Source: Candidatus Falkowbacteria bacterium | GTDB lineage: Bacteria > Patescibacteriota > Patescibacteriia > JACRDY01 | Direction of reading: 5' to 3' | DNA length: 21,024 nt | Assembly (NCBI GenBank): GCA_016218485.1 | Contig: JACRDY010000068.1 | Location: forward strand, 1 to 21,024 | Part shown: positions 3,116-20,931 of the stretch, piece after piece | Position numbering within the stretch: the first letter of the stretch is position 1 | How the letters are laid out: every line of letters starts with the position of its first letter | Translations under genes and position numbers: made by a program | The notes under the pieces: generated by a model | Seen by the model: only the letters and a program-made list of their open reading frames with translations | Database searches by the model: none | What the model was told of the DNA's origin: nothing

Positions 3116-3337
3116 TTTTTGAAGTTAAAAAAATCGTTGGCAGTGTGCCGGCGGTTTTTTTAACCAGAGAGATAAGAATTAAGATTAAAGATTTAAGAAT
3201 AAATACACCATTCTTAAATTTTTAATCTTATCCCTTAATTCTCCCGCTACTTGACCAATTACCAATTACCAGTAAGATAAGGGTAGGTTTGTCACTATAC
3301 CGTATAATACGGTGCACCAATAGAGGAGGAGGTCACG

Positions 3338-4612
<1,275 letters not shown>

Positions 4613-4647
4613 GGGTCAGGAGGGGAAGTTTTTCGCGAAAATTACAG

Positions 4648-4684
4648 GCCGGGTTCGCAAGGACCCGGCTTGATCTATTTTTTA
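4648..4684 (+). terminator. Candidate intrinsic terminator after purD
   Basis: Hairpin gccgggttcgcaaggacccggc followed by tctatttttt. A second imperfect hairpin plus T-run follows at ~4708-4745. Confidence 0.4.
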
Positions 4685-4854
4685 CTGTTTGGTGGCATCC
4701 CTGCTCGACTCACCCCGCACAATGCGGAGTGGGTGGGTTTTTATTGAATTACTTAAATTCTAAATTCAAAATCCTAAATTCCAAATACTTAAATCATAAA
4801 TTCTAAACACGCAATACCGAGTTTAAGATTTTGGATTTAGGTAGTATGATTCAT

Positions 4855-4911
4855 CCAGCACCTTCCAGAATATCCCGCAGCAAGCTGACGGGATATTCTG
4901 GAAGGTGCTGG
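4855..4911. repeat. Perfect long hairpin / palindromic element, copy 1 of the CCAGCACCTT family
   Basis: ccagcaccttccagaatatcccg-cagcaagctgac-gggatattctggaaggtgctgg, a 23-bp perfect stem. It is itself flanked by an inverted pair of AT-rich word-repeat arms (4745-4800 / 4912-4965). Confidence 0.7.
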
Positions 4912-4990
4912 ATTTATTTAGGATTTTGAATTTTAGGTTTATAATTTAATTCTTAGTTATGGGTAAGTCTCATTCTATAAATTTTCAGAG

Positions 4991-5083
4991 AGCGGGTAGG
5001 GGGAATCGCCAGCTCATCGGCAAAGTCGTGAGCTGATCCGCTAAAGCCCGAAGGGCTATGAGCGGAAACCCCCCTCCAGTTTG
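4991..5083 (-). pseudogene. Partial second copy of the tRNA-Gly 3' portion (anticodon-loop 3' side through the acceptor 3' strand) with a 59-nt structured insertion in the T-loop
   Basis: Minus-strand reading: AAACTGG-AGGGG-GGGGG-TTT[CCGCTCATAGCCCTTCGGGCTTTAGCGGATCAGCTCACGACTTTGCCGATGAGCTGGCG]ATT-CCCCC-TACCCGCT. It matches tRNA-Gly segments on both sides of the insert. The insert has two hairpins, one with a UUCG tetraloop. Confidence 0.5.
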
Positions 5084-5101
5084 CCTGCCCGCCAGAGCCT
5101 C

Positions 5102-5173
5102 AGCGGGTAGGGGGAATTGAACCCCCCTCTCCAGTTTGGAAAACTGGAATAATAACCGCTATACGATACCCGC
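5102..5173 (-). tRNA. tRNA-Gly (anticodon TCC)
   Basis: Reverse complement: GCGGGTA-TC-GTAT-AGCGGTTA-TTAT-T-CCAGT-TTTCCAA-ACTGG-AGAGG-GGGGG-TTCAATT-CCCCC-TACCCGC-T. Cloverleaf with U73 discriminator, closely similar to bacterial tRNA-Gly(UCC). No encoded CCA. Confidence 0.85.
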
Positions 5174-5191
5174 TCAGGCTGAGGCAGGCGG

Positions 5192-5213
5192 GGAAAACTG
5201 GAATAATAATCGC
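5192..5213 (-). pseudogene. Partial copy of the tRNA-Gly D-loop, D-stem 3' strand and anticodon stem/loop up to the anticodon, lying just 5' of the intact tRNA-Gly
   Basis: Minus-strand reading: GCGATTATTATT-CCAGT-TTTCC, against the intact gene GCGGTTATTATT-CCAGT-TTTCC. Together with the 4991-5083 fragment it forms an outer tRNA-Gly-like copy split in the anticodon loop by [spacer + intact tRNA-Gly + spacer]. Confidence 0.45.
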
Positions 5214-5228
5214 TTACCATTATATACA

Positions 5229-5304
5229 TGGTCGGGCCGGCGAGGCTCGAACTCGCGACCTCCTGGTCCCAAACCAGGCGCGCTACCAACTGCGCTACGG
5301 CCCG
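5229..5304 (-). tRNA. tRNA-Pro (anticodon TGG), CCA encoded
   Basis: Reverse complement: CGGGCCG-TA-GCGC-AGTTGGTA-GCGC-G-CCTGG-TTTGGGA-CCAGG-AGGTC-GCGAG-TTCGAGC-CTCGC-CGGCCCG-A-CCA. C1:G72 is typical of tRNA-Pro. Confidence 0.85.
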
Positions 5305-5325
5305 ACCATGTTTTTAATGATGAAA

Positions 5326-5448
5326 GCCGGGACGCGCTTCACCCGCCCAAATTTAGCTCTCATCATTAATGGTATCCGCGATTACCCACCATCGTGTAAT
5401 CAAAACGGACAACGTTTTTGTACCGAGCTAAATTTGGGCGGGTAAACC
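5326..5448 (-). repeat. Copy 1 of a ~125-nt terminally palindromic structured element (candidate ncRNA or MITE), immediately 5' of tRNA-Pro
   Basis: Terminal inverted repeats CACCCGCCCAAATTTAGCTC ... GAGCTAAATTTGGGCGGGTAAACC (~20 bp) enclose internal hairpins (CAAAACG-gacaa-CGTTTTG; GATTAC...GTAATC). Two further copies at 5756-5879 and 6149-6273 show the same organisation. Confidence 0.7.
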
Positions 5449-5465
5449 AACTGCGCTACGGCCCG
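5447..5465 (-). pseudogene. Partial copy of the tRNA-Pro 5' end (acceptor 5' strand through the D-loop), abutting element copy 1
   Basis: Minus-strand reading: CGGGCCGTAGCGCAGTTGG, identical to the first 19 nt of tRNA-Pro, followed directly by the element's TTTACCCGCC end. Confidence 0.5.
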
Positions 5466-5543
5466 TTAATAACAATTAACAGTTAACAATTAACCAGTAA
5501 CAAACAACCAAATATGCTAGTCAATTGTTAAGCGTTAATTTGT

Positions 5544-5640
5544 TAACTGTTAATTGGTGCCGAGGGGCAGAATTGCCCGCTCGTCTTCGCGAGCGGATCC
5601 GCTCAGGCCGAATGGCCATGAGCGGAAACTGCCGACGCTC
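5544..5640 (-). pseudogene. Partial second copy of the tRNA-Phe 3' portion with a ~50-nt structured insertion in the T-loop, and an encoded CCA
   Basis: Minus-strand reading: ...GGCGTC-GGCAG-TT[TCCGCTCATGGCCATTCGGCCTGAGCGGATCCGCTCGCGAAGACGAGCGG]GCAATT-CTGCC-CCTCGGC-A-CCA. The insert shares CCGCTCAT-GCC-TTCGG-C-T-AGCGGATC with the Gly-copy insert. Confidence 0.5.
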
Positions 5641-5662
5641 CCGCCAACTATTCCAGGCAATC

Positions 5663-5734
5663 TGCCGGGGGGCAGAATTGAACTGCCGACGCCATGCTCT
5701 TCAGGCATGCGCTCTACCACTGAGCTACCCCGGC
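5663..5734 (-). tRNA. tRNA-Phe (anticodon GAA)
   Basis: Reverse complement: GCCGGGG-TA-GCTC-AGTGGTA-GAGC-G-CATGC-CTGAAGA-GCATG-GCGTC-GGCAG-TTCAATT-CTGCC-CCCCGGC-A. No encoded CCA. It is flanked by the inverted leader/trailer GCAATCT...AGATTGC. Confidence 0.85.
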
Positions 5735-5755
5735 AGATTGCAAATTATAGTTGTA

Positions 5756-5879
5756 GGCGGGACGCTCTTCACCCGCCCAAATTTAGCTCTAGTAATTAAT
5801 GGTATCTGTGACTCTCTCACGCGCGTGTAATCCAAGCAGATAACGCTTTTGTGCCGAGCTAAATTTAGGCGGGTAAACC
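5756..5879 (-). repeat. Copy 2 of the ~125-nt element, immediately 5' of tRNA-Phe
   Basis: Same terminal inverted repeats (CACCCGCCCAAATTTAGCTC...GAGCTAAATTTAGGCGGGTAAACC). The interior is divergent, but the internal hairpin is kept by different base pairs (AAGC/GCTT versus AAAACG/CGTTTT in copy 1). Confidence 0.7.
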
Positions 5880-5918
5880 AGCCCCGAAGGGGCCCCTTTG
5901 GGGCTGAGCTACCTCGGC
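5880..5918 (-). pseudogene. GC-rich double hairpin plus a 15-nt fragment matching the 5' end of a tRNA-Phe variant
   Basis: Minus-strand reading: GCCGAGGTAGCTCAG-CCCCAAAGGGGCCCCTTCGGGGCTGG. GCCGAGG is exactly complementary to the CCTCGGC acceptor 3' strand of the partial Phe 3' copy at 5544-5640, and not to that of the intact tRNA-Phe (GCCGGGG/CCCCGGC). Confidence 0.45.
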
Positions 5919-5966
5919 TTACCCTGATATCTGAACGGAATATAGTATTAGCAAATAGACTGCATA

Positions 5967-6048
5967 GGGCGTACTTGGATTCCCCGCCTGCCAGCGCCTG
6001 CGGCGCAGCCGTTGGCGGGCAGGGAACCAAGGACCTCGTCATTATCAG
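5967..6048 (-). pseudogene. Partial second copy of the tRNA-Ile 3' portion with a 42-nt GC-rich hairpin insertion in the T-loop
   Basis: Minus-strand reading: CTGATAA-TGACG-AGGTC-CTTGG-TTC[CCTGCCCGCCAACGGCTGCGCCGCAGGCGCTGGCAGGCGGGG]AATCC-AAG-TACGCCC. The insert sits at the same T-loop position (after TTC) as in the Gly and Phe copies. Confidence 0.5.
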
Positions 6049-6066
6049 CTCCGCCCCGCACCAAAA

Positions 6067-6140
6067 TGCGCGTACTTGGATTTGAACCAAGGACCTCGTC
6101 ATTATCAGTGACGCGCTCTAACCAACTGAGCTATACGCGC
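6067..6140 (-). tRNA. tRNA-Ile (anticodon GAT)
   Basis: Reverse complement: GCGCGTA-TA-GCTC-AGTTGGTTA-GAGC-G-CGTCA-CTGATAA-TGACG-AGGTC-CTTGG-TTCAAAT-CCAAG-TACGCGC-A. No encoded CCA. Confidence 0.85.
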
Positions 6141-6148
6141 ATATTGCT

Positions 6149-6273
6149 GCGGGGTGAACGCTCTTCACCCGCCCAAATTTAGCCTTAGTAATTAAGGGTA
6201 ACCGCGATTACTCACCATCGTGTAATCTAAGCGGACAACCTTTTTGTACCGAGCTAAATTTAGGCGGGTAAAC
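6149..6273 (-). repeat. Copy 3 of the ~125-nt element, immediately 5' of tRNA-Ile
   Basis: The terminal inverted repeats and interior are highly similar to copy 1. It is followed at 6274-6313 by the same GC double hairpin and a 5' tRNA fragment GGACGTATAGCTCAG, which pairs with the TACGCCC strand of the partial Ile 3' copy. Confidence 0.7.
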
Positions 6274-6420
6274 CAGCCCCGAAGGGGCCCCTTTGGGGCT
6301 GAGCTATACGTCCGTCATCTAGAGTTTACTGCTAGGGTAGATAAAAATAACTACTCGGCAGTCTAATACAAAACGGTAAAAAAAGCAAGGTACGAGCAGG
6401 CTGATTTAGTCTTAATTTGA

Positions 6421-6449
6421 TTGATTAATTTAGATATTTCGGCTAGTAT
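6421..6449 (+). promoter_or_regulatory. Sigma70-like promoter for mnmA
   Basis: TTGATT, 17-nt spacer, TAGTAT, ending ~15 nt upstream of the ATG at 6464. Confidence 0.45.
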
Positions 6450-6463
6450 GCTAGAGCAGTTTT

Positions 6464-7564
6464 ATGACTCAAAAGAATAAGAAACCCACAGTCATCGTGG
6501 CCATGTCCGGCGGCGTGGATTCGTCTGTCGCGGCCGCTTTACTACAGCGGCAGGGCTATGACGTGCGCGGCGTGCATATCAAGATGTGGTCGGATCCGGA
6601 TATCCCCTGTTTGTTTACTTTTGACCGGATTGACGCCATGAAAGTAGCGATCCAGCTCGGCATTCCTTTCACCACTTGGGATCTGACGCGCGAATACCGC
6701 AGCGCGGTCGTGGACTACATGATCCGCGAGTTTAAGGCCGGTCGGACGCCCAACCCGGACGTGATGTGTAATAGCGAGATCAAGTTCGGGGTGTTTTTGG
6801 ATAAAGTTTTAAAAACGGGCGCGGAGTATTTGGCGACGGGGCATTATGTGAAAAAAGCGCAAAGCGCAAAGCGCAAAGCACAGAGCCAGTCCACGATACA
6901 AAAATTGTATATCGCGGCGGATGGGAATAAGGATCAGAGCTATTTTCTCTGGCGGCTGAATCAGCAGCAGCTGCGGCATAGCCTGTTTCCCCTGGGTGGT
7001 CTGACTAAGCCGCAGGTGCGAGTCCTCGCCAAACAGTTTAAGCTGCCTACCGCTGACAAGCCGGACTCGCAGGGTATCTGCTTCATCGGCGAGATTAACC
7101 TCAAGGATTTCCTGGAACACTACATCCCCCGCCGTCCGGGCACAATCGTGACCACGGACGGCCGCGTACTCGGCCATCATGAGGGTCTCCCCTTCTATAC
7201 CATTGGTCAGCGTGAGGGGCTGGGTCTGGGCGGTGGCATCCCCTACTATGTCGTTGCCAAAAATTTTAAAACCAATCAGCTGATTGTTGGCAGCCGGGGC
7301 GCGGCTGAACTGTTTCTGCCGAGTTTGCGGTTCACCGCCGCCAATTGGCTACTTGGCAGCGAGCCGAAACTGCCTCTGATCTGCCTGGCGCGTATCCGCT
7401 ACCGTCAGCCGCTGGAGCGTTGTCGGGTCAAACGCATCAGCGGTCGCGGCATTCGGGCGATCTATCAAGCGAAATTTACCGAGCCGCAGCGGGCCATTAC
7501 TCCCGGTCAGTCCATTGTGTTGTACAGGAGCGAGGAGATGATCGGGGGCGGGATTATTATTTAG
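6464..7564 (+). CDS. mnmA: tRNA-specific 2-thiouridylase (tRNA (5-methylaminomethyl-2-thiouridylate)-methyltransferase)
   Basis: A 366-aa ORF. PP-loop VAMSGGVDSSV near the N-terminus. Collinear with MnmA throughout (DQSYFL, GICFIGE, ITPGQS..GGGII C-terminus). It contains an ~8-codon in-frame insertion encoded by GCGCAAAGCGCAAAGCGCAAAGCACAGAGC at ~6856-6890. Confidence 0.85.
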   Translation: MTQKNKKPTVIVAMSGGVDSSVAAALLQRQGYDVRGVHIKMWSDPDIPCLFTFDRIDAMKVAIQLGIPFTTWDLTREYRSAVVDYMIREFKAGRTPNPDVMCNSEIKFGVFLDKVLKTGAEYLATGHYVKKAQSAKRKAQSQSTIQKLYIAADGNKDQSYFLWRLNQQQLRHSLFPLGGLTKPQVRVLAKQFKLPTADKPDSQGICFIGEINLKDFLEHYIPRRPGTIVTTDGRVLGHHEGLPFYTIGQREGLGLGGGIPYYVVAKNFKTNQLIVGSRGAAELFLPSLRFTAANWLLGSEPKLPLICLARIRYRQPLERCRVKRISGRGIRAIYQAKFTEPQRAITPGQSIVLYRSEEMIGGGIII

Positions 7565-7700
7565 TCCTTAGTCCATAGTCCCTAGTCCTTAGTCCATAGT
7601 CCTTATTCCATAGTCCTTAGCGTATAGTTTTAGCGTGAAAGCCTCCACTAAGTACTAGGGACTAAGGACTATGGACTATGTATAGGACTATGTACTATTT
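7564..7700. repeat. Palindromic spacer built from TAGTCC/TAGGAC-type 6-9-nt words
   Basis: gtccttagtccatagtccctagtccttagtccatagtcc...actagggactaaggactatggactatgtataggactatg. The two arms are reverse complements of each other. Confidence 0.55.
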
Positions 7701-7817
7701 CCTCTAATTTTGCTATACTAATACTATAGCTATCAGGACATTGACGCTTTTCCAGTCGTGTGCTAACCTATTGGCAAACAAAAGCCCTATGATACGGGTT
7801 TTTTATTTTAAGTCAGT

Positions 7818-7920
7818 CCAGCACCTTTCATCATTTTTATCTAAAATTTGCCATTATATTAGCTAAAATAAGATTAATTATGGTTGATTTATTTTAGATA
7901 AAAATGATGAAAGGTGCTGG
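7818..7920. repeat. Long perfect hairpin, copy 2 of the CCAGCACCTT family, with an AT-rich interior; it ends exactly at the start codon of the next gene
   Basis: ccagcacctttcatcatttttatctaaaat...attttagataaaaatgatgaaaggtgctgg, an ~30-bp perfect stem. Confidence 0.65.
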
Positions 7921-8523
7921 ATGGCTAAAAATATGCAAAAATCACGGATATTGCAAAAACTACGTAAATATTGGAGAAAATTAGGCGCTTTTTTGGTGCA
8001 CATGCATGTGCGTCGGGTTGAATTGGCTGTTTTTGCTGTAATTTTATTTGAATTTTCTTTTCCTCAAGTATCATTAGCTCAAGAATTGCAGGCTCCGGCC
8101 AGCTATCAGACCGAGAGCGTGATGTATGAAACAGTGATTCGGGATGCCGCTCCGGTTATCAGCGACGCGGCTGTATTGGCTGATTTTAATAATAGTCTGC
8201 CAATGGCGGCTGATCGTCAGCCGACCCGTACCATCTGGGTGACGGTAACGGCCTACTCCAGCACTCCGGATCAGACTGACGACAGCCCGTGTATTACGGC
8301 TAACGGGTTTGATGTCTGTGAACACGGGCAGGAGGACGTGATCGCGGCCAATTTTTTGCCCTTTGGTACCACGGTCAAAATGCCGGAGTATTTCGGCGAC
8401 ACAGTCTTTACTGTGCAGGATCGGATGAACGCGCGCTACTACAGCCGCGTTGATGTCTGGATGCAGAGCCGGGAGGCGGCTAAACAATTCGGCGTGCGGA
8501 CGCTTAAGGTTGAGGTTTATTAG
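7921..8523 (+). CDS. Secreted 3D-domain protein (MltA-like fold, cell-wall binding/remodelling; related to YocH/YuiC C-terminal domains)
   Basis: An N-terminal hydrophobic signal/anchor (LAVFAVILFEFSFPQVSLA). The C-terminal region has VTVTAYSSTPDQTDDSPCITANG ... VIAANFLPFGT ... FTVQDRMN...VDVWM, with three spaced Asp residues. The true start may be the internal ATG at 7933. Confidence 0.6.
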   Translation: MAKNMQKSRILQKLRKYWRKLGAFLVHMHVRRVELAVFAVILFEFSFPQVSLAQELQAPASYQTESVMYETVIRDAAPVISDAAVLADFNNSLPMAADRQPTRTIWVTVTAYSSTPDQTDDSPCITANGFDVCEHGQEDVIAANFLPFGTTVKMPEYFGDTVFTVQDRMNARYYSRVDVWMQSREAAKQFGVRTLKVEVY

Positions 8524-8587
8524 CTACAAATAGCGAATAGCACATAGTCAATAGTACATAGCGCTTGAGAAGGGCGTTTTTTTATAT

Positions 8588-8700
8588 GGCTACATTATCA
8601 CATTGCTACATTGCCAAATTGCTAAATTGTCACACTGTTGTGTGGGTTATTTAGCAATTTGGCAATGTAACAGTTTAACAATTTAACAATGTAGCAATTT
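8588..8700. repeat. Large palindrome of ATTGC/ACATTG-type words
   Basis: A perfect 17-bp inverted repeat, ttgccaaattgctaaat / atttagcaatttggcaa, sits inside longer symmetric arms (ctacattatcacattgctacattgcc ... ggcaatgtaacagtttaacaatttaacaatgtagc). Confidence 0.55.
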
Positions 8701-8745
8701 TGCTTTTCCCTTTTACTCCCGCGTGAAATACGGTATAATATTTTT

Positions 8746-9246
8746 ATGCAGCTATTTGTTAAAAAATTCACCAAAAACGGCCTGAAAATAGGTTTTTTTG
8801 TGGTGGCGCTGTGTTTGATGTTGGCGCTGGCATTGCCGGTGCTGGCCGTTACTGGACAGGGTGGTGACACGGGGCAGGGGGATACGAGTGGGCAGGGTAA
8901 TGACACCGGATCGGGTGGTGATACGGGACAAAATGAAGGGGGTAAGGCCAGTATTATATCCCTGGAAGATCCATTGAATGTAAAGACGGATGCAACAGGG
9001 CCATTGTCCAACATAGCTATTGTGCAGGAAATAATTCTCCGTTTGGCTAAATTCCTGATCGCGCCCATCGGCGCTATTGCTTTCCTCTGTTTGGTGATTG
9101 GCGGGTTTTATATGATTTTTTCCGGGGGTAATGAGGAGCGGGTTAAACAGGGCAAAGATATTATTGTCTGGACCGTGGTGGGGATTATCGTGATTTTTAG
9201 CGCCTACGCGGTGATTAATTTTGTGCTGACGGCGGTGAGAGGATAG
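8746..9246 (+). CDS. Secreted small membrane protein with TrbC/VirB2-like conjugative-pilin topology (signal peptide, Gly/Asp/Thr-rich low-complexity segment, two C-terminal TM helices)
   Basis: A 166-aa ORF. Signal peptide FFVVALCLMLALALPVLAVTG, then repeats QGGDTGQGDTSGQGNDTGSGGDTGQNEGG, then two hydrophobic helices separated by GGNEERVKQGKD. TATAAT at 8733-8742. The family assignment rests on topology only. Confidence 0.35.
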   Translation: MQLFVKKFTKNGLKIGFFVVALCLMLALALPVLAVTGQGGDTGQGDTSGQGNDTGSGGDTGQNEGGKASIISLEDPLNVKTDATGPLSNIAIVQEIILRLAKFLIAPIGAIAFLCLVIGGFYMIFSGGNEERVKQGKDIIVWTVVGIIVIFSAYAVINFVLTAVRG

Positions 9247-9478
9247 CACAAAGCTCAGAGCACAAAGCGCAGAGTTCAGAGCGCAAAGCACGTTTCAAAA
9301 GAGCGTCTTTTTTTAATTAGGAATTACTAATTACGAATTACGAATGAGATTACCAAAGAGCGGCTTTTGGCAGGCTAGGAACATGTAACATGTAGCATAT
9401 AGCATGTAACTCCATACAAGCTACACGCTACATGCTACAAGATTTTCTCTCATTTTAAACACTTTTATATACTTTTGA

Positions 9479-9507
9479 TTGACTTTTTATTTAAAATATG
9501 CTATATT
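9479..9507 (+). promoter_or_regulatory. Sigma70-like promoter followed by a ~175-nt structured leader upstream of the 9685 gene
   Basis: TTGACT, 17-nt spacer, TATATT. The leader contains hairpins CACACTGCAGAAGTGTG, CAACCGAA..TTCGGTTG and CCCCGCAAGGGG (GNRA loop). Confidence 0.5.
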
Positions 9508-9684
9508 GACAAATCACACTGCAGAAGTGTGTTTGTATACAGAACCTTGAAAACGGCGTTTATGACCAATAAGCGCTTACAAATATGCAACTCAAGTACA
9601 ACCGAAGAGTCAGTTTTCGGTTGAGTGAAATAGTACAGTCAACAATTCCCCGCAAGGGGTGCAACGGTTTTCGGAGGTGTCATC

Positions 9685-10698
9685 ATGATGCGATTGATTG
9701 AGTCTCTTGATGCGAAAGTCCAAAAGTGGTTCGGCATTCAGCTGATCAAGCTGTGGGACGCGAAAAGCCAAGGCAATCCCCCAGTCATTGTTCGGCTGGA
9801 TGAAAAGCACGAGATCGTTTTCCGATCCGTCTTCGGCAGTGACGACCACACCTTCAGTGGTTACCGGATAGAAGAACCCACCTATTGCTGGTGGGTCCCG
9901 GTCTTCCGTGACGAATACGTCGCCACGATTTTTACCGGGGAGTACTCCGCACCGTTCAATACGCAAGGATTTGAGGCCAACTCCGGCGTGGAAAATATAA
10001 ATGACCTGGAAAAGGAATTCAAGGGCATGATGGGCGCTGCCGCGTGGGAGAAGGCTCGTAAGGAACTGGAAGAGGTGATACAGCGTCGTCTGAAAGGCGG
10101 CGCGCCGAAAGTGACGATATACGTCTCCGGTACGTTGCAGCTCGATGTTGAAGGCATCATCAACGCCAGCGCGAAATACGCCACTCGCTTGTTCAAGAGC
10201 GGCAACGCGGATCAGATCATCAACGGCATGATGGAGCTCGCGCTCGCCCATGTCTTCGGCAGCATGATGCTGGAATCAGCCCTGATCCTCGCGGGTCATC
10301 GGCGGGAAAAGACGATCAAGCAGCTGATGAACTTGATGAATTTCGGCTGCCTGGAAGTGGACGAAGGTGGCGAGCCGATCGAGGCGACGCGGGTCACGGG
10401 TATCAAAGGTCTGCGGTACTACGGTCTCCGTCTGGTGCAGTTCGGTATCAAGCGGATTGTGCCGCCGGAGGAGATTGAGGAAGCGATCCGTCAGGAAGAA
10501 AGCGCCGAACGAGAGCGCGTGGCCGATAAAGCCAAGGCTGATGTCGCGGCAATGATTCACGATCTTCCAGCGGCGTTGGCGTTTACGGTTATGCACCTGA
10601 CCGATGCCCAAGTCAAAGGCCCGGGTCTCGAAATTTCAGTCAGTAAGAATAAGAAGGGAAAGTCCGGCGGTGCAGCAGCGAGTGACTCCACCGATTAA
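9685..10698 (+). CDS. Hypothetical soluble protein, 337 aa, no recognisable domain
   Basis: Long ORF with a GGAGGTG RBS 6 nt upstream and coding-like composition. No motif recognised by eye. Confidence 0.6.
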   Translation: MMRLIESLDAKVQKWFGIQLIKLWDAKSQGNPPVIVRLDEKHEIVFRSVFGSDDHTFSGYRIEEPTYCWWVPVFRDEYVATIFTGEYSAPFNTQGFEANSGVENINDLEKEFKGMMGAAAWEKARKELEEVIQRRLKGGAPKVTIYVSGTLQLDVEGIINASAKYATRLFKSGNADQIINGMMELALAHVFGSMMLESALILAGHRREKTIKQLMNLMNFGCLEVDEGGEPIEATRVTGIKGLRYYGLRLVQFGIKRIVPPEEIEEAIRQEESAERERVADKAKADVAAMIHDLPAALAFTVMHLTDAQVKGPGLEISVSKNKKGKSGGAAASDSTD

Positions 10699-10754
10699 CA
10701 CCAATTCGGGTCGCGGGCTTAAACCCCCGCGACCCGCTCAATCAGGAGTAGTCA

Positions 10755-11753
10755 ATGGAAACAGGAAAAGTCCCATATAGTGAGCCAGGTGAGGTAGATG
10801 CGAAGAAGAAGAAAGATCAATCAGGAGGGAGCATCTACGGCTGGACTATCGCCGGTTTTGCCCTGCTGGCCCTGGTGGTTGTGCTGGTGATCGTGGTAGG
10901 TATCGTGGCGGGGATCGTCGGGGCAATTTCCTGGCTAGCTTTAGGGCTCCTCAGCGTACATATCTCCGCGATTGTACTGCTGGTGGGCTGGCTGTACCGC
11001 CAAAAGGCATTTAGCGCCGCATGGGCAGTGATCTGGGCCGCCATTCTGTTTTTCGGCATCCCAATATGGCTCTTGAAGTATAGTGCCTGGTCGCCTGAGG
11101 CGGCCAAGATGATCAGCGTGTACATTGAGACCGAGGCGGACAAGCAGCGTGAGCTGCCAAACCCGCCGAGTGAGACCTATGAGGAACCAACTTTTCAGGA
11201 CTTCGTCCGTGAGGCCGGAGATCTAGGAGATGGTGAGACCACCACGTTTGAGGAGCCGGCATTTCCGATTGACACGTCAATCCATTGGAAGACCCAGCGA
11301 GGCGTGTGGTGCGTGTACTTTGATCCGAAGACGGATCCGTACCCGTGCCGCGGCAATACCGGCCTGCCCGGTCATGGCGACTTTCGTCTGAAGAACGACG
11401 GGCCGCACTTCACCATCAAGGCCAAGGGGCCGGTGGAGGGGCTGATATTCAGCTACACGGCCAAGACCGGGACTCACCCGGTGCGCAAAGACGACGCGAC
11501 CATCGCGGCCGAGCGCAGGGCCTATGAAGAGAAGGCGGCCGCGATCAAGGACAAGGCCGCGGTTCAAAAAAAGCCGCCGGACGAGTGGTACCAGAATCCA
11601 ATAACATGGATCGTTGTGGCGGTGCTTGCGCTGGTGATCGGCCTGATCATCAGCCGGGTTCGCGCTGGCGGTCGGGTCAAGGCCGCTCAACGTGCGGCAG
11701 ACCAGCAGGCCGTATTGGCACAGTTGGCAAAGGGCGAGGTCACGGTGGAGTGA
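10755..11753 (+). CDS. Hypothetical integral membrane protein (about 4 N-terminal TM helices, a central soluble domain, a C-terminal TM helix), probably co-transcribed with the 9685 gene
   Basis: A 332-aa ORF with an AGGAG RBS. A stable hairpin cgggtcgcgggcttaaacccccgcgacccg with no T-run sits in the 56-nt gap after the upstream gene. Confidence 0.6.
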   Translation: METGKVPYSEPGEVDAKKKKDQSGGSIYGWTIAGFALLALVVVLVIVVGIVAGIVGAISWLALGLLSVHISAIVLLVGWLYRQKAFSAAWAVIWAAILFFGIPIWLLKYSAWSPEAAKMISVYIETEADKQRELPNPPSETYEEPTFQDFVREAGDLGDGETTTFEEPAFPIDTSIHWKTQRGVWCVYFDPKTDPYPCRGNTGLPGHGDFRLKNDGPHFTIKAKGPVEGLIFSYTAKTGTHPVRKDDATIAAERRAYEEKAAAIKDKAAVQKKPPDEWYQNPITWIVVAVLALVIGLIISRVRAGGRVKAAQRAADQQAVLAQLAKGEVTVE

Positions 11754-11833
11754 TGAACTATAGCCCCGGGGGTACGCCCCCGGGCTCACGACTGACCTGG
11801 TTCATATACCAGATCAGTCACACGCAAAGGACG

Positions 11834-11857
11834 GTGGGCCATTTCCCACCGTTTTTT
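11834..11857 (+). terminator. Intrinsic terminator after the 10755 gene
   Basis: ggtgggccatttcccacc + gtttttt. A second hairpin, ccccgggggtacgcccccggg, lies at 11773-11795. Confidence 0.6.
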
Positions 11858-11879
11858 CATTGGCAAAATCTTGGTAACA

Positions 11880-11907
11880 AAAAACCGTCTTGATCAGAGA
11901 CGATTTT
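11880..11907 (-). terminator. Intrinsic terminator directly after the tRNA-Cys 3' end
   Basis: Minus-strand reading: AAAAAATCGTCTCTGATCAAGACGG + TTTTTT. Confidence 0.55.
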
Positions 11908-11982
11908 TTGGAGGCCTGGAGGGGAATTGCACCCCTGCATAGAGGTTTTGCAGACCTCTGCCTTACTGCTTGGCTACCAGGC
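11908..11982 (-). tRNA. Candidate tRNA-Cys (anticodon GCA), CCA encoded, with a non-canonical T-loop
   Basis: Reverse complement: GGCCTGG-TA-GCCA-AGCAGTA-AGGC-A-GAGGT-CTGCAAA-ACCTC-TATGC-AGGGG-TGCAATT-CCCCT-CCAGGCC-T-CCA. Perfect 7-bp acceptor, and U73 as expected for Cys. The T-loop UGCAAUU lacks the usual T54-Psi55-C56 (it has G at 55), and the D-stem has 3 bp plus an A-A. Confidence 0.55.
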
Positions 11983-12087
11983 CGTAAATTTACGTGGTCT
12001 TACTATAGCAGGATAAACCTTTAAAATCAAGAGTTTTTGCTGATTAAGAGTTTAGAAATATTTTAGATAGGCTGTGGTAGACTATTT

Positions 12088-12116
12088 TTGACAGGGTAAC
12101 TACCCTTTGCTATAAT
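12088..12116 (+). promoter_or_regulatory. Consensus sigma70 promoter for the 12133 gene
   Basis: TTGACA, 17-nt spacer (containing the palindrome GGGTAACTACCC), TATAAT, then ~16 nt to the ATG. Confidence 0.6.
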
Positions 12117-12132
12117 TCTTAAGCTATCGTTT

Positions 12133-12597
12133 ATGGGCAACACTAATCAACAATTTGAATTATTAGCCATTAAACAAGATTTGGCGGAATTTCGTCAAGA
12201 AAATAACGAACTGTTTTTGGCTATTAAGCAAGATCTAGATCGGATGGCCACCAAGGACGATCTCCAAGGCGTGAAGGACGATCTCCAAGGCGTGAAGGAC
12301 GATCTCCAAGGCGTGAAGGACGATCTCCAAGGCGTGAAGAAGGACTTACATAGGTTCGCCACCAAAGACGACCTATTAGCATTCGCCACCAAAGACGACA
12401 TGGAACATTTTCGGGATGAATTAAAAGAAGAAATTCATCAGACATTTGATGTGCTAATTACCGGGCAGGATAAAATAGTGAAGATACTGATGGATCAGAA
12501 AGCGGAAAACGCGGCCAATCAATCAGCGCACGGACGTTTCCAGACCACGCTGGATACCCACGAACGGAGAATAGGTGTTTTGGAAAATCCTGTTTAG
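12133..12597 (+). CDS. Coiled-coil repeat protein with KDDLQGV heptad repeats
   Basis: A 154-aa ORF with ATKDDLQGV-(KDDLQGV)x3-KKDLHRFATKDDLLAFATKDDMEHF. The heptad periodicity suggests a coiled coil. Confidence 0.6.
   Translation: MGNTNQQFELLAIKQDLAEFRQENNELFLAIKQDLDRMATKDDLQGVKDDLQGVKDDLQGVKDDLQGVKKDLHRFATKDDLLAFATKDDMEHFRDELKEEIHQTFDVLITGQDKIVKILMDQKAENAANQSAHGRFQTTLDTHERRIGVLENPV
12253..12336 (+). repeat. Perfect 4 x 21-nt tandem repeat (aaggacgatctccaaggcgtg) inside the 12133 CDS
   Basis: Four identical consecutive units encoding KDDLQGV. Degenerate units follow (aagaaggacttacat..., accaaagacgacctatta...). Confidence 0.9.
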
Positions 12598-12625
12598 TGT
12601 ATTTGCGGGCAATGGTATAAAATCG

Positions 12626-12654
12626 TCCCCCGATCCATCGGGGGCGGTTTTTTT
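12626..12654 (+). terminator. Intrinsic terminator after the 12133 gene
   Basis: cccccgatccatcggggg + cggttttttt. Confidence 0.65.
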
Positions 12655-12656
12655 AT

Positions 12657-12713
12657 CCAGCACCTTTCAGAATACCCCGTCAGCTTGCCGTGGGGTATGC
12701 TGAAAGGTGCTGG
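12657..12713. repeat. Perfect long hairpin, copy 3 of the CCAGCACCTT family, immediately upstream of polA
   Basis: ccagcacctttcagaataccccg-tcagcttgcc-gtggggtatgctgaaaggtgctgg. It is homologous to copy 1 (4855-4911) with compensatory substitutions on both arms. Confidence 0.7.
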
Positions 12714-12750
12714 ATTTTATTACCCCAAAAATGGTAAAATAGGCCTATCT

Positions 12751-18030: not shown

Positions 18031-18096
18031 TGCCTTCTCCTTGAGCGTGAAAGGGTTATGTTCTTTGTACCATACTAGGGGAAAAGGTCAAGATTA

Positions 18097-18167
18097 GACA
18101 CAGATTACACAGATAAACACAGATGGCACAGATCCGTGTGATCTGTGATTATCTGTGTAATCTGTGT
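18097..18167. repeat. Near-perfect ~70-bp palindrome of CACAGAT-type words, abutting the stop codon of the 18168 gene
   Basis: agacacagattacacagataaacacagatggcacagatc|cgtgtgatctgtgattatctgtgtaatctgtgtct. A second copy, 68/71 identical, is at 20861-20931. Confidence 0.8.
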
Positions 18168-19796
18168 CTAATAGATTTCCTTCTGGTAACACTCCTCACA
18201 GTACACCCGTTCCGGCCGCTCCGGCGCGTACGTCGTCTCAAATTCATTGGTGCAGCCCGCGTTCATGCAGGCGCGGTGGTACAATGTGCGCGGGTTGCGT
18301 TGCTGGAGTCGCGCCAAATGGCGACAGTCAAAGCACTGGCGGGCGATTGGCAGGCCGTGGCTGCGGTAGAATTTCAATTCCTGAGGAATAATTTTGTAGT
18401 CTTTTTTGCAAGTAGTGCAGGCCAGGATTTCGTTGAGAATGGCGTCTGTCACTTGGGTAATGTCAGCTGGTATGTCCGTCAGTGTTTCTCGGCCAAAGGT
18501 GCCCGGCAGCTCATTCTGCCAGAACCAGCCTTTACTCTGGACCTCATCTTTGGTCAGGGGAAAGTACTCCCGCGCGATGGTTTCGTTATAGCAGAACGGG
18601 GACAGGCGGATCGGGAAAAATTCGCCGTACTGGTCAGCTCGCTTCATCTCCTCAATAATCTTTTCTTTCAGTTGCTTATATTCGGTTTCGGAATATTTTT
18701 TGTTCAAAATTTGGTAGGAGCCGTGTTTGAGTCCGGTGCAGCCGAATAAATTTTGACTATAGAAACACTGCCACGAGTAGCTCGTGAATGAGCAGTCCCA
18801 GCAGGCCACCGTCGCAATTTGATATTTACTGTTGACGATGCTGATACAGTTGTAGCTCATTTCGGCTTTTGGCGAATAATTAATATCACTGACCGCTGAC
18901 GCGCCTCGGGGCAGGTTCCAGACGTAGAAGCAGTCTTCCAACTCTTGTGATTCAAAGCAGTGCGCGGCGTTGCGACAGTTATAGAGGTAGTCGCCGGTTG
19001 AGTTCTCGCAGTGGCGGATGCGCGCATATGGCCGCGGCACGGTCAGGCTGAATTGGTAGAATGTTTGATAAAATTTTTCCGGATTAGCTTTGGCTTCCGC
19101 TAACACTTTCGCGCATTCTTCCTTAGTCGCCGGTTTATTGAAAATATAATTTTCTTTGTGGCGCAGGCCGACGCAGCCAATGCAATTCTGGCAGCTGATG
19201 CAATCATAGCAAAAGGCCAGTTCAGATGAATTTTCGCAGTCATTACAATAAATGCCGGAGAAAAGATTTTGGCAGTGGACGCACTGGTAGCAGTTTTGCA
19301 GATCAAAGCCTTGCGCGCAGTCCATGGAGTCAAACGAGTTATTAACAAAATAGGAATAGTAAATATTCTCCCCGGTAACGCCGGAGATGCACATATAGGA
19401 ATCTTTGTAGTAGACCGAGTGCGGGCAGTAGTCGCTGTTTTCGCCGTGCGAGATGATCAGCGCCAGGTGCGGAGTTTTCAGTAGCAGCTCTTTGAATTGT
19501 TCCAGAAATGGTTTAGCTGGATCATAGTCCAGCGCTGGCGCTTGCCACCTGTCGCTCCACCAGCACTCCGGGCAGTACTGGAGGTAGGGTTTGTCTTTGG
19601 CGTAAAAAGAGACAATAGCTTTTTTGCAGAGATCACATTGGCGAGTATAGAGCATTCGTTCATTACGCCAGGCACAGCGAGATCGCTGCCGGCAGTCCGG
19701 GCAGCTTTTTGGCTCGGGCAGATTCAGTTTCACGAAGAAGTCTTTCTCGGCGCTCGTCAGGTCAAATTGTGCGTTGCAGTGTTGGCAGGTGGTCAT
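18168..19796 (-). CDS. Cysteine-rich multi-zinc-ribbon protein, 542 aa with roughly 60 Cys, and homologous N- and C-terminal double-CxxC modules
   Basis: N-terminus C5xxC8...FxxLNLPEPKSC32PDC35RQRSRCAWRNERMLYTRQC54DLC57...YC75PEC78WW. C-terminus CTTCKKDYKIIPQELKFYRSHGLPIARQCFDCRHLARLQQRNPRTLYHRACMNAGC...YCEECY. Both share the skeleton CxxC-F-LP-CxxCR-R-RN-R-LY-R-C-C-YC-EC. The centre has ~20-aa repeats of the form YNC-x3-C-x2-S-x2-L-x2-C. Confidence 0.7.
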   Translation of the reverse strand: MTTCQHCNAQFDLTSAEKDFFVKLNLPEPKSCPDCRQRSRCAWRNERMLYTRQCDLCKKAIVSFYAKDKPYLQYCPECWWSDRWQAPALDYDPAKPFLEQFKELLLKTPHLALIISHGENSDYCPHSVYYKDSYMCISGVTGENIYYSYFVNNSFDSMDCAQGFDLQNCYQCVHCQNLFSGIYCNDCENSSELAFCYDCISCQNCIGCVGLRHKENYIFNKPATKEECAKVLAEAKANPEKFYQTFYQFSLTVPRPYARIRHCENSTGDYLYNCRNAAHCFESQELEDCFYVWNLPRGASAVSDINYSPKAEMSYNCISIVNSKYQIATVACWDCSFTSYSWQCFYSQNLFGCTGLKHGSYQILNKKYSETEYKQLKEKIIEEMKRADQYGEFFPIRLSPFCYNETIAREYFPLTKDEVQSKGWFWQNELPGTFGRETLTDIPADITQVTDAILNEILACTTCKKDYKIIPQELKFYRSHGLPIARQCFDCRHLARLQQRNPRTLYHRACMNAGCTNEFETTYAPERPERVYCEECYQKEIY

Positions 19797-20111: not shown

Positions 20112-20861
20112 ATGTCCACCAAAAATATTCTAGAAGACTTGGGTCTAACCAAAAGCAAGGCTGATGTGTACTTGGCGGCGTTAGCCGTTGGCAGCGGCTC
20201 GGCCCAGGAGATCGCCAATCGGGCGGGTTTACCGCGGACTACTACTCATGAAATTCTGCAGACGCTCGTCGGCATGAGTCTGATTGGTTTCGTGACTAAA
20301 GGCCGGACGCGGATCTACAGCGCCGAGCCGCCGGAGAAGCTCAAAATTTTACTCAAAGAAAAAGAGGCCAGGCTCGAAAAGGCTTTGCCAGAATTGTCGG
20401 CTCTCTTCAACACCAGCGGCATTCGGCCGCGGGTGCGGTTTTACGAAGGTGAGGATGGTATTAAAACAGTGTTTGAAGACACGCTGACCGTCAGCAACAA
20501 GCTGTTGCGCAGTATTCTTTCCATGAAAGACCTGTATGAAATGCCGGGCAAGGATTACGTCAACGCCTACACGCGCCGGCGAATTGCGGCTGGAATAAAA
20601 CTGCGCGTGGTGCGTTCAGAGGGTAAAGAAGTGGAGAAAGTTTGGCCGGCGAGCACTCGAGACAGCCGCGATCTGCATTACGCGCCGGATGATATGTTTT
20701 TCCCGATGACGGTGTATATTTACGACAACAAGCTCGGGCTCATCAGCAGCAAAAAAGAAAACTTCGGCATGATTATTGAGTCGCCGGATCTGTATCAGAC
20801 CATGAAGAATATGTTTGAGGTGATGTGGCAGGTGACGCGGGTGATGAAACCGGTGGATTAG
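20112..20861 (+). CDS. TrmB-family transcriptional regulator (N-terminal winged HTH plus C-terminal effector domain)
   Basis: A 249-aa ORF with the N-terminus LGLTKSKADVYLAALAVGSGSAQEIANRAGLPRTTTHEILQTLVGMSLI, which matches the TrmB HTH pattern (LGLTxxEAxVYLxLLxxGxxTAxEIAxxSGVPRTKVYxVLxxL). Confidence 0.65.
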   Translation: MSTKNILEDLGLTKSKADVYLAALAVGSGSAQEIANRAGLPRTTTHEILQTLVGMSLIGFVTKGRTRIYSAEPPEKLKILLKEKEARLEKALPELSALFNTSGIRPRVRFYEGEDGIKTVFEDTLTVSNKLLRSILSMKDLYEMPGKDYVNAYTRRRIAAGIKLRVVRSEGKEVEKVWPASTRDSRDLHYAPDDMFFPMTVYIYDNKLGLISSKKENFGMIIESPDLYQTMKNMFEVMWQVTRVMKPVD

Positions 20862-20931
20862 ACACAGATTACACAGATAATCACAGATCCGTGTGATCTG
20901 TGATTATCTGTGTAATCTGTATCTAATAGAT
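20861..20931. repeat. Second copy of the CACAGAT-word palindrome
   Basis: agacacagattacacagataatcacagatc|cgtgtgatctgtgattatctgtgtaatctgtatct. It overlaps the TrmB stop codon on one side and abuts the stop of the partial paralog on the other. Confidence 0.8.

Follow-up and report, generated by a model that had tools for sequence, protein, structure and literature searches.

Three hairpins on a Candidatus Falkowbacteria contig as probable members of a dispersed palindromic family of the Candidate Phyla Radiation

Three long hairpins and their sites

The window, that is, the whole stretch of DNA that was analysed, corresponds to an entire contig (21,024 bp) from a metagenome-assembled genome (MAG) of Candidatus Falkowbacteria, which belongs to the Candidate Phyla Radiation (CPR, or Patescibacteria); its genes include purD, a minus-strand tRNA cluster, mnmA and polA. 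An original prediction, made from the sequence of this contig, had described three long hairpins as one family. Here we describe these hairpins and the dispersed palindromic family to which they belong. We found that all three exist and that each is one base wider on both sides than predicted. Copy 1 (4854-4912) is 59 nt long with perfect arms of 25 bp, copy 2 (7817-7921) is 105 nt long with perfect arms of 31 bp and an AT-rich interior, and copy 3 (12656-12714) is 59 nt long with arms of 24 bp that are 96% complementary. No strand was assigned to any of them, and copy 3 stands in the orientation opposite to copy 1.

Sequence reading together with an inverted-repeat scan gave the termini of all three hairpins as TCCAGCACCTT…AAGGTGCTGGA. 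The chance expectation for this paired pattern in the window is 0.00, and the 10-mer CCAGCACCTT occurs six times against 1.19 expected, a count of six or more being reached in none of 100 shuffles. Folding z-scores were -12.3 for copy 1 (-50.8 kcal/mol), -12.5 for copy 2 and -9.5 for copy 3. A covariance model of the family scored the three copies at 40.1, 39.2 and 38.8 bits, respectively, and revealed no further copy in the 21,024-bp window. An Rfam search of the window at gathering thresholds returned only tRNA, rRNA and intron matches, none of them overlapping any of the three.

When copy 3 was aligned with the reverse complement of copy 1, seven differences were found (88% identity). Two fully compensatory pairs lie at element positions 12/48 (C-G to T-A) and 20/40 (T-A to C-G), so the predicted compensatory changes between these copies are real; the other changes comprise a G.T wobble at 24/36, a mismatch at 16/44 and one change in the loop. 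The description of copy 2 as keeping only its termini around an AT-rich interior was also borne out. It has only its 13-nt termini (TCCAGCACCTTTC/GAAAGGTGCTGGA) in common with the family and lacks TAAA flanks, and its interior matched nothing in any compared locus.

The spacer that holds copy 1 is convergent: purD runs up to 4612 on one side of it, and on the other the tRNA cluster, on the minus strand, presents its 3' side (tRNA-Gly, 5101-5174). For copies 2 and 3 the spacers are co-directional. The window genes have separate intrinsic terminators of their own (4645-4672, 7780-7803 and 12627-12644), and these two copies fall within or shortly behind the T-tracts of the second and third, copy 3 starting directly behind its T-tract. 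As predicted, one hairpin ends at a start codon, the last base of copy 2 being the A of the ATG at 7921, and copy 3 ends 36 nt before the polA ATG (12751). The broader claim that all three sit immediately upstream of gene starts holds for these two copies and fails for copy 1, which is upstream of no start. We attribute the closeness of hairpins to gene starts to the shortness of CPR intergenic spacers.

The flanks of copies 1 and 3 were read on the plus strand. Copy 1 is preceded by TTCA (4850-4853) and followed by TTTAT (4913-4917), the reverse complement of the family left flank ATAAA, so that the pair is a degenerate TTTA…TTTAT. Copy 3 is preceded by TTTA (12652-12655), which we read as the remnant of a 4-bp target duplication, and followed by TTTT (12715-12718), one mismatch from TTTA…TTTA. 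Each of the two pairs, TTCA/TTTA and TTTA/TTTT, is the family flank in a decayed form. In addition, copy 1 is nested between the 18-nt, perfectly complementary arms (4762-4779/4916-4933; AAATTCAAAATCCTAAAT/ATTTAGGATTTTGAATTT) of a palindrome of the heptamer type, another kind of repeat, into which it appears to have inserted.

The dispersed family and its canonical element

One genome per GTDB species was scanned for the paired termini, which occurred in at least 106 tiles, almost all from CPR MAGs. Among the matches listed, roughly a dozen are chance palindromes that lie within coding regions of high-GC organisms; aside from these, the family numbers more than 100 sites, spread over MAGs from ten or more CPR lineages, the hosts being Doudna-, Moran-, Magasanik-, Levy-, Kuenen-, Falkow-, Taylor-, Nealson-, Peri- and Saccharibacteria as well as other Parcubacteria. 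The original prediction had named as its refutation that only the three window copies exist, and this is false. The sampled tiles of Doudnabacteria MFEF01 held at least 22 sites, including 20 identical 98-nt copies in both orientations, and Magasanikbacteria MFQY01 held eight copies that were 68-84% identical. Interiors clustered mostly by host lineage, identity being 71% within a genome, 62% between genomes of the same label and 53% across labels. Searching about 660 kb of tiles with the covariance model added only three copies with inexact termini (one, one and two mismatches), and the copy with two mismatches kept its terminal pairing through a compensatory change. Solo termini were never seen in the tiles, and a DNA-uptake sequence was ruled out because the termini never stand alone.

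Elements range from 52 to 120 nt, with a mode at 98 nt, where the sequence reads TCCAGCACCTTCC-TGTCGGGGTATTGCACCCCGCAGG-AAGGCTATATTGAGCCATTCA-TCCCCGCAGCAAGCTGCGGGG-TATTCTGGAAGGTGCTGGA. The terminal inverted repeats are invariant over 11-13 bp (TCCAGCACCTT(C/T)(C/T)…AAGGTGCTGGA); the 11-nt termini are exact, and pairing reaches 13-15 bp with compensatory changes. The canonical interior is branched into hairpin 1, a short middle hairpin and hairpin 2, giving a cloverleaf-like four-way junction of -59 kcal/mol (z -7.7). We analysed this structure in an alignment of 37 full-length copies. RNAalifold on the MAFFT alignment returned the outer stem only, and the inner helices and the junction were hence specified by hand. 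With this junction, 83% of cells were paired compared with 39-47% in slid controls, and none of 500 shuffles matched the observed values; in hairpin 2, each of the eight pairs varies on both sides. The covariation across copies that had been proposed as a check is therefore present. Strand asymmetry was modest (A.C 94 vs G.T 55, with one strand the more stable in 23 cases against 13; p=0.009). Apart from read-through into it from host frames, the element contained no open reading frame (ORF), and neither Pfam nor NCBIfam gave a match. In a search of the canonical elements against Rfam 15 (E<=1) there was no match, the only element-related overlap being a tRNA-Ala in one non-canonical member.

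Next to the element, identical TAAA (or TTTA) was found on both sides at 80 of 104 distinct sites, with a one-base difference at 10 more. The flank logo reads A(82%)A(92%)TAAA, then the element, then TAAA, and is almost unconstrained further out. Such flanks fit both a duplicated target and a TAAA target joined to an element-borne TAAA. Of the 10 sites where neither flank is canonical, two carry identical 4-mers (TTGA, TGAA), which favours a real 4-bp duplication of the target; about 0.07 would be expected by our own estimate from base composition, so the excess is suggestive only, and a shuffle test of these 4-mers gave p=0.45 from a pool confounded by TAAA/TTTA. At the nucleotide level no empty site was found among resampled JGI/ENA contigs, UvrC homologues and tiles of related genomes; the resampled contigs came from the same strain with the same insertions, and no syntenic tiles between related genomes were found. 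Orientation was random relative to GC skew (38:42, a weak test in 8-kb tiles) and to gene strand (43:37).

Comparison with the canonical element also accounts for the two short hairpins of the window. The right 39-40 nt of copies 1 and 3 near-perfectly match the canonical right half (hairpin 2 plus GGGATATTCTGGAAGGTGCTGGA), and in the same alignment their left arm is the complement of that half. Read in this way, both are foldback forms derived from the right half of the canonical element. Most simply, template switching at hairpin 2 would have produced a snap-back that made the right half a perfect palindrome, and copy 2 would have retained the termini only. No exact match to the foldback subfamily was found in JGI metagenomes.

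Several non-canonical occurrences were also recorded. On a Saccharibacteria contig (L098, 6328-6430) a tRNA-Ala(GGC) lies exactly between the termini (TCCAGCACCTTTGaa[tRNA]AAGGTGCTGGA) without TAAA flanks, which could reflect cargo capture, a tRNA-related origin or a processing stem. A Saccharimonadales MAG (L015, 3956-4025) has a hairpin bearing the family termini in its rRNA spacer, located 19 nt past the 16S rRNA 3' end; it lacks TAAA, and the pairing of its stem continues into the flanking sequence (CTAGC…GCTAG). Eighteen unrelated metagenome contigs (L117-L134), which differ in GC content, carry the 11-mers in reverse order (AAGGTGCTGGA, a short loop, TCCAGCACCTT and a T-tract) as ordinary terminator hairpins.

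Canonical elements also occurred on contigs labelled Gammaproteobacteria, Nitrospirota, Thermodesulfobacteriota and Methylomarinum (L004, L036, L064, L079, L099, L106 and others). The Rho protein of one of these, the Gammaproteobacteria-labelled MAG L004, is 78-100% identical to Rho of Patescibacteria and Microgenomates. Judged by this protein, the label is wrong and the MAG belongs to Patescibacteria; the other contigs with non-CPR labels may likewise be mislabelled or mis-binned. The interiors of a Taylorbacteria copy (L084, 5456-5553) and a Doudnabacteria copy (L044, 2911-3008), both from RIFCSPHIGHO2-series MAGs, are 92% identical, which points to horizontal transfer from one CPR lineage to another or else to an error in binning. 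Plasmid and phage collections gave no match. The sole match in a viral collection (L116, 503-566; IMGVR_UViG_3300023440_000168) has canonical TTTA…TTTAT flanks around a non-canonical interior, and may be a CPR phage, and so a possible carrier between hosts, or a misclassified contig. Short-read (Logan) contigs of the same organism end in or near the element.

Copies in and beside genes

About 16 copies start one base after a TAA stop codon, and 12 of 93 sites lie inside long ORFs, in both orientations and with the reading frame kept. These genic copies use all three frames of the termini (SSTF…KVLD, PAPS…GRCW and QHL…EGAG), and Pfam confirmed the host protein at nine of the 12 sites. The hosts include an MGMT/ATL-like protein (112 residues across 79 profile positions), the SAM-like domain of a XerC/IntI-like integrase (115 residues across 82), the RNase H domain of UvrC (185 residues across 157), and O-antigen-ligase-like, YfhO-like, PMT_2-like, GT1 and DUF4430 proteins. 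When the MGMT-like protein was aligned with PDB 3gva, the query advanced from residue 40 to 80 while 3gva advanced from 45 to 52; the 33 extra residues equal an element of 95 nt plus 4. Of 73 unique copies in the family, 39 have a length that becomes divisible by three once 4 is added.

UvrC was analysed further. The NCBI annotation of this protein includes the insert, whose peptide contains …RINPAPSCRGIAPR…, the uninterrupted junction being …RRFARINSTAEEK…. The insert lies in a linker of variable length among CPR homologues; identity to the closest homologues does not exceed 72%, and in these the linker holds other inserts. In an AlphaFold (AF2) model the insert (residues 452-487) has a predicted local distance difference test (pLDDT) score below 50, with confident domain halves on both sides. 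Other CPR UvrC proteins (P0011-P0018, P0122; columns ~520-575 of alignment A3) also hold odd inserts, such as 'LPSSLHLLERGVPSPGDGEGERERS' and 'PPPREEGQGRLTPSQSPPH', at the same linker and elsewhere. To judge by their sequence these look like translated repeats of other families, and in-frame insertion of repeats may be common in CPR.

Splicing or excision of the genic copies was rejected as an explanation, as every genic copy preserves its ORF and in-silico excision (element plus TAAA) restored a broken ORF at none of the 93 sites. From this lack of repair it follows that the genic copies are probably translated rather than removed, as are the palindromic elements of Rickettsia. Six of the encoded peptides had no match in NCBIfam or Pfam at E<=10, and a protein-database search with the insert peptide returned only nine short spurious ORFs.

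The gene context also bears on the suggestion that the hairpins are regulatory and sequester start regions. That suggestion was not sustained, since copies are randomly oriented relative to genes and occur after stop codons, in convergent spacers and inside ORFs; it is further weakened by the upstream window genes having their own intrinsic terminators.

Mobility, rival explanations and known relatives

[quoted passage not shown] The terminal repeats, the flanking direct repeats, the identical dispersed copies, the lack of coding sequence and the insertions relative to homologues all lead to this reading. Transposition would then be the means of dispersal, and a DDE-type transposase acting in trans is the most likely mover, a choice that we hold tentatively; terminal repeats and a 4-bp duplication point there most simply. 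In this model an enzyme supplied in trans would recognise both termini, excise or copy the element, and insert it at the asymmetric target AA-TAAA with duplication of TAAA. Insertions that break genes would be purged, whereas those in tolerant protein loops would survive and be translated, because none of the three frames of the termini contains a stop and, with 4 added, the commonest lengths are divisible by three.

Several results weigh against a mobile family of this type. No long-range pair of termini, as expected of an autonomous element, was found in the 106 tiles, and no transposase was found in the parts of genomes searched (about 660 kb of flanking CPR sequence and about 190 kb of the high-copy genome). 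No polymorphism between filled and empty sites was seen at the nucleotide level, the resampled contigs all being of the same strain. In about 42 of 46 full-length copies the interior is oriented in step with the non-palindromic flank, a coupling of polarity that is unusual for a DDE-moved MITE with symmetric repeats. The termini are exact while interiors fall to 50-70% identity, a pattern that could mean selection in place and not only for mobility. Finally, members without TAAA flanks and with unrelated interiors exist, namely the L098 tRNA, the L015 hairpin and window copy 2. Among candidate enzymes, the multicopy ORFs of the high-copy genome were rejected as transposases, being pilins, PaaX-like proteins and inositol monophosphatases. 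The right terminus GGAAGGTGC looks to us like the inverted repeat of IS5; it points outward, and we take the likeness to be coincidence.

The coupling of polarity to the asymmetric target would be expected if the same family moved instead as single-stranded DNA through a HUH/Y1 enzyme, in the peel-and-paste manner of IS200/IS605, palindrome-associated transposable elements (PATEs) and repetitive extragenic palindromes (REPs) with their associated transposases (RAYTs). Elements would insert 3' of (AA)TAAA in fixed polarity, the right TAAA would be their own cleavage site and the hairpins would be recognition structures. The richness in conserved, covarying hairpins, the modest strand asymmetry, the failure to find a DDE partner and the feasibility of a ~100-nt single-stranded circle all agree with this. 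However, IS200/IS605-type elements lack terminal inverted repeats, and here the repeats of 11-13 bp are the most conserved feature; there is no orientation bias with GC skew or gene strand; the two variant sites with identical non-TAAA 4-mers are what true duplication predicts; the more stable strand is opposite to the one that the model requires; and no Y1/HUH gene was found in the sampled tiles. We therefore consider this route unlikely. It is more doubtful still that the 11-bp stem is a recognition module for a conserved chromosomal CPR enzyme (a housekeeping HUH, Xer-like or RNase-type enzyme), and equally doubtful that the family is a host-mobilised or partly domesticated cloverleaf element, possibly tRNA-derived and specific to CPR. 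A host enzyme would explain the invariant termini with drifting interiors, the lack of an autonomous partner, the polarity tied to AATAAA, and the presence of the stem around a real tRNA and beside a Saccharibacteria 16S rRNA.

The tRNA-Ala placed exactly between termini in L098 and the hairpin 19 nt past the 16S rRNA in L015 also fit an element that is primarily a functional structured RNA or RNA signal (a processing stem, small RNA or terminator), whose outer stem binds a host factor and whose dispersal is secondary. The covarying cloverleaf-like structure, termini far more conserved than interiors and the TTTATT that follows the stem in one orientation are consistent with such a role. We consider it improbable, given that copies stand in both orientations relative to neighbouring genes, that 12 lie in frame within ORFs (nine of them Pfam-confirmed), that one genome holds 20 identical copies, that flanking direct repeats are present, that many members with canonical flanks have unrelated interiors, that Rfam gave no match, and that the upstream window genes possess their own terminators. 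A plain intrinsic terminator does not fit: the TTTATT tail is present in one orientation only, there is no bias towards that orientation, and the window genes have separate terminators. Inverted 11-bp arms around an asymmetric TAAA, serving as the crossover core of element and target, would explain both the polarity coupling and the direct repeats if a site-specific recombinase bound the termini as its arms, in the manner of attC, dif or lox sites. In being branched and variable the interior is reminiscent of attC, whose terminal structure also varies, and these genomes contain Xer/IntI-like recombinases. Yet the targets share only AATAAA and have no arms, direct reading found the RYYYAAC/GTTRRRY (R''/R') cores absent from all copies, no single-orientation arrays exist, and no joined-end site was found in the loci compared or in metagenomes, where all 18 matches are ordinary terminator hairpins, none with a TAAA spacer. 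A double-stranded circle of ~100 bp is, moreover, sterically unlikely, and we regard this explanation as very improbable. As for local coincidence, or a recent duplication or inversion limited to this contig, the window holds only three copies, and copies 1 and 3 are 88% identical inversely; the family scan nevertheless refutes a local origin, having found more than 100 copies with the same termini and flanks in many unrelated assemblies, and the chance expectation for the paired pattern in the window is 0.00.

Among known systems, the family is closest in behaviour to RPEs and in structure to bacterial MITEs as described in a 2024 review (PMC10969869), which also summarises the RPEs (Ogata et al. 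2000/2002). Both families consist of small palindromes (~100-150 bp) in reduced genomes, dispersed intergenically and in frame in unrelated genes; in both the added peptide is tolerated by the protein fold, and a transposase is known for neither. They differ in that there is no sequence relation, the peptides matching no family in Pfam or in NCBIfam, RPE models included; in that the hosts here are CPR, not Rickettsia; in the sharply defined terminal repeats and TAAA flanks of our family; and in that ~13% of its sites are genic, compared with nearly half reported for some RPE families. The small size, lack of a transposase ORF, terminal inverted repeats and multiple dispersed copies match the MITE definition of the review, whereas a related autonomous insertion sequence with the same termini was not found in the parts of genomes searched. 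With Correia/NEMIS, ERIC, RUP, Nezha and other MITEs the family shares size, terminal repeats, direct repeats, multiple copies, stable structure, non-coding nature and presumed mobilisation in trans. Unlike them, it has a non-palindromic target and apparent duplication (AATAAA/TAAA) to which the polarity of the element is coupled, termini that are invariant across deep CPR lineages while interiors diverge, and an interior that is branched and covarying.

The original prediction had offered REP-like elements or enzyme substrates as explanations. A dispersed palindromic element, possibly the substrate of an enzyme, is indeed present, and it resembles REP/RAYT systems in its dispersed palindromes, hairpin-based recognition, possible HUH enzyme and non-coding nature; membership of the REP family in the strict sense did not hold up. 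REPs measure 20-40 nt, bear a GT(A/G)G head, stand mostly outside genes, often in clusters, and accompany a REP-flanked RAYT, none of which was seen here: the elements are 59-120 nt long, with conserved terminal inverted repeats of 11-13 bp and direct repeats of TAAA, their termini read TCCAGC… and lack a GTAG head, and the sampled tiles yielded no RAYT. PATEs, which derive from IS200/IS605, are similar in their subterminal hairpins and in inserting beside a fixed short target in fixed polarity, but they lack terminal repeats and target duplication and are biased to one replication strand, whereas our family has terminal repeats and, at the variant sites, identical 4-mers on both sides, and showed no strand bias. 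attC sites share a length of 57-141 bp, conserved ends, a variable or branched middle, structure kept over sequence and a hint of strand asymmetry; in contrast, the family has neither RYYYAAC/GTTRRRY cores nor single-orientation cassette arrays, and its copies occur in genes and in both orientations. Full-text literature searches on CPR/Patescibacteria repeats and on the motif returned no description of this family or of any MITE-like family in CPR, and the MITE review (PMC10969869) does not mention CPR. Our best reading is thus a palindromic family, of which we found no description, that behaves as a MITE/RPE-like family mobilised in trans.

The contig carries other repeats and unusual features. 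Its first bases fall within a highly divergent 16S rRNA gene, which covers Rfam model positions 520-1533. An insertion in this gene, around 640-770, holds a heptamer-repeat hairpin (GCAAATTACGAATTACAAATTACGAAT…), and the gene is followed by a match to group II intron D1-D4 (1370-1483) and a LAGLIDADG endonuclease ORF (1400-2005). Long hairpins of tandem heptamer-like units occupy the spacers at 3167-3243, 7562-7680, 8583-8703, 18093-18172 and 20857-20927. The units are TAGTCCA/TAGTCCT, ATTGCTA/AATTGCT and ATTAGACACAGATTACACAGAT, the last type occurring twice (18093-18172 and 20857-20927), and these hairpins are a repeat system separate from the palindromic family. Another inverted-repeat family (TTCACCCGCCCAAATTTAGCTC…GAGCTAAATTTGGGCGGGTAAA) lies between tRNA genes at 5338-5446 and 5768-5877, and the leader and trailer sequences of the window tRNAs pair beyond the acceptor stem.

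CPR bacteria account for a large part of the diversity of bacteria; their genomes are tiny and densely packed with genes, they are usually thought to be poor in mobile elements, and almost no genetic tools exist for them. The family has practical consequences for genome data, as short-read assemblies appear to break at the element and its copies give rise to spurious small ORFs and lengthened annotated proteins, and it could serve to mark mis-binned or mislabelled CPR contigs. Should the mobilising enzyme come to light, a transposon tool for CPR might be built on the 11-bp ends and the AATAAA target. In-frame insertion in genes such as uvrC would be a second, independent example of Rickettsia-type selfish DNA inside proteins, and both cases, in CPR and in Rickettsia, come from reduced, symbiont-type genomes.

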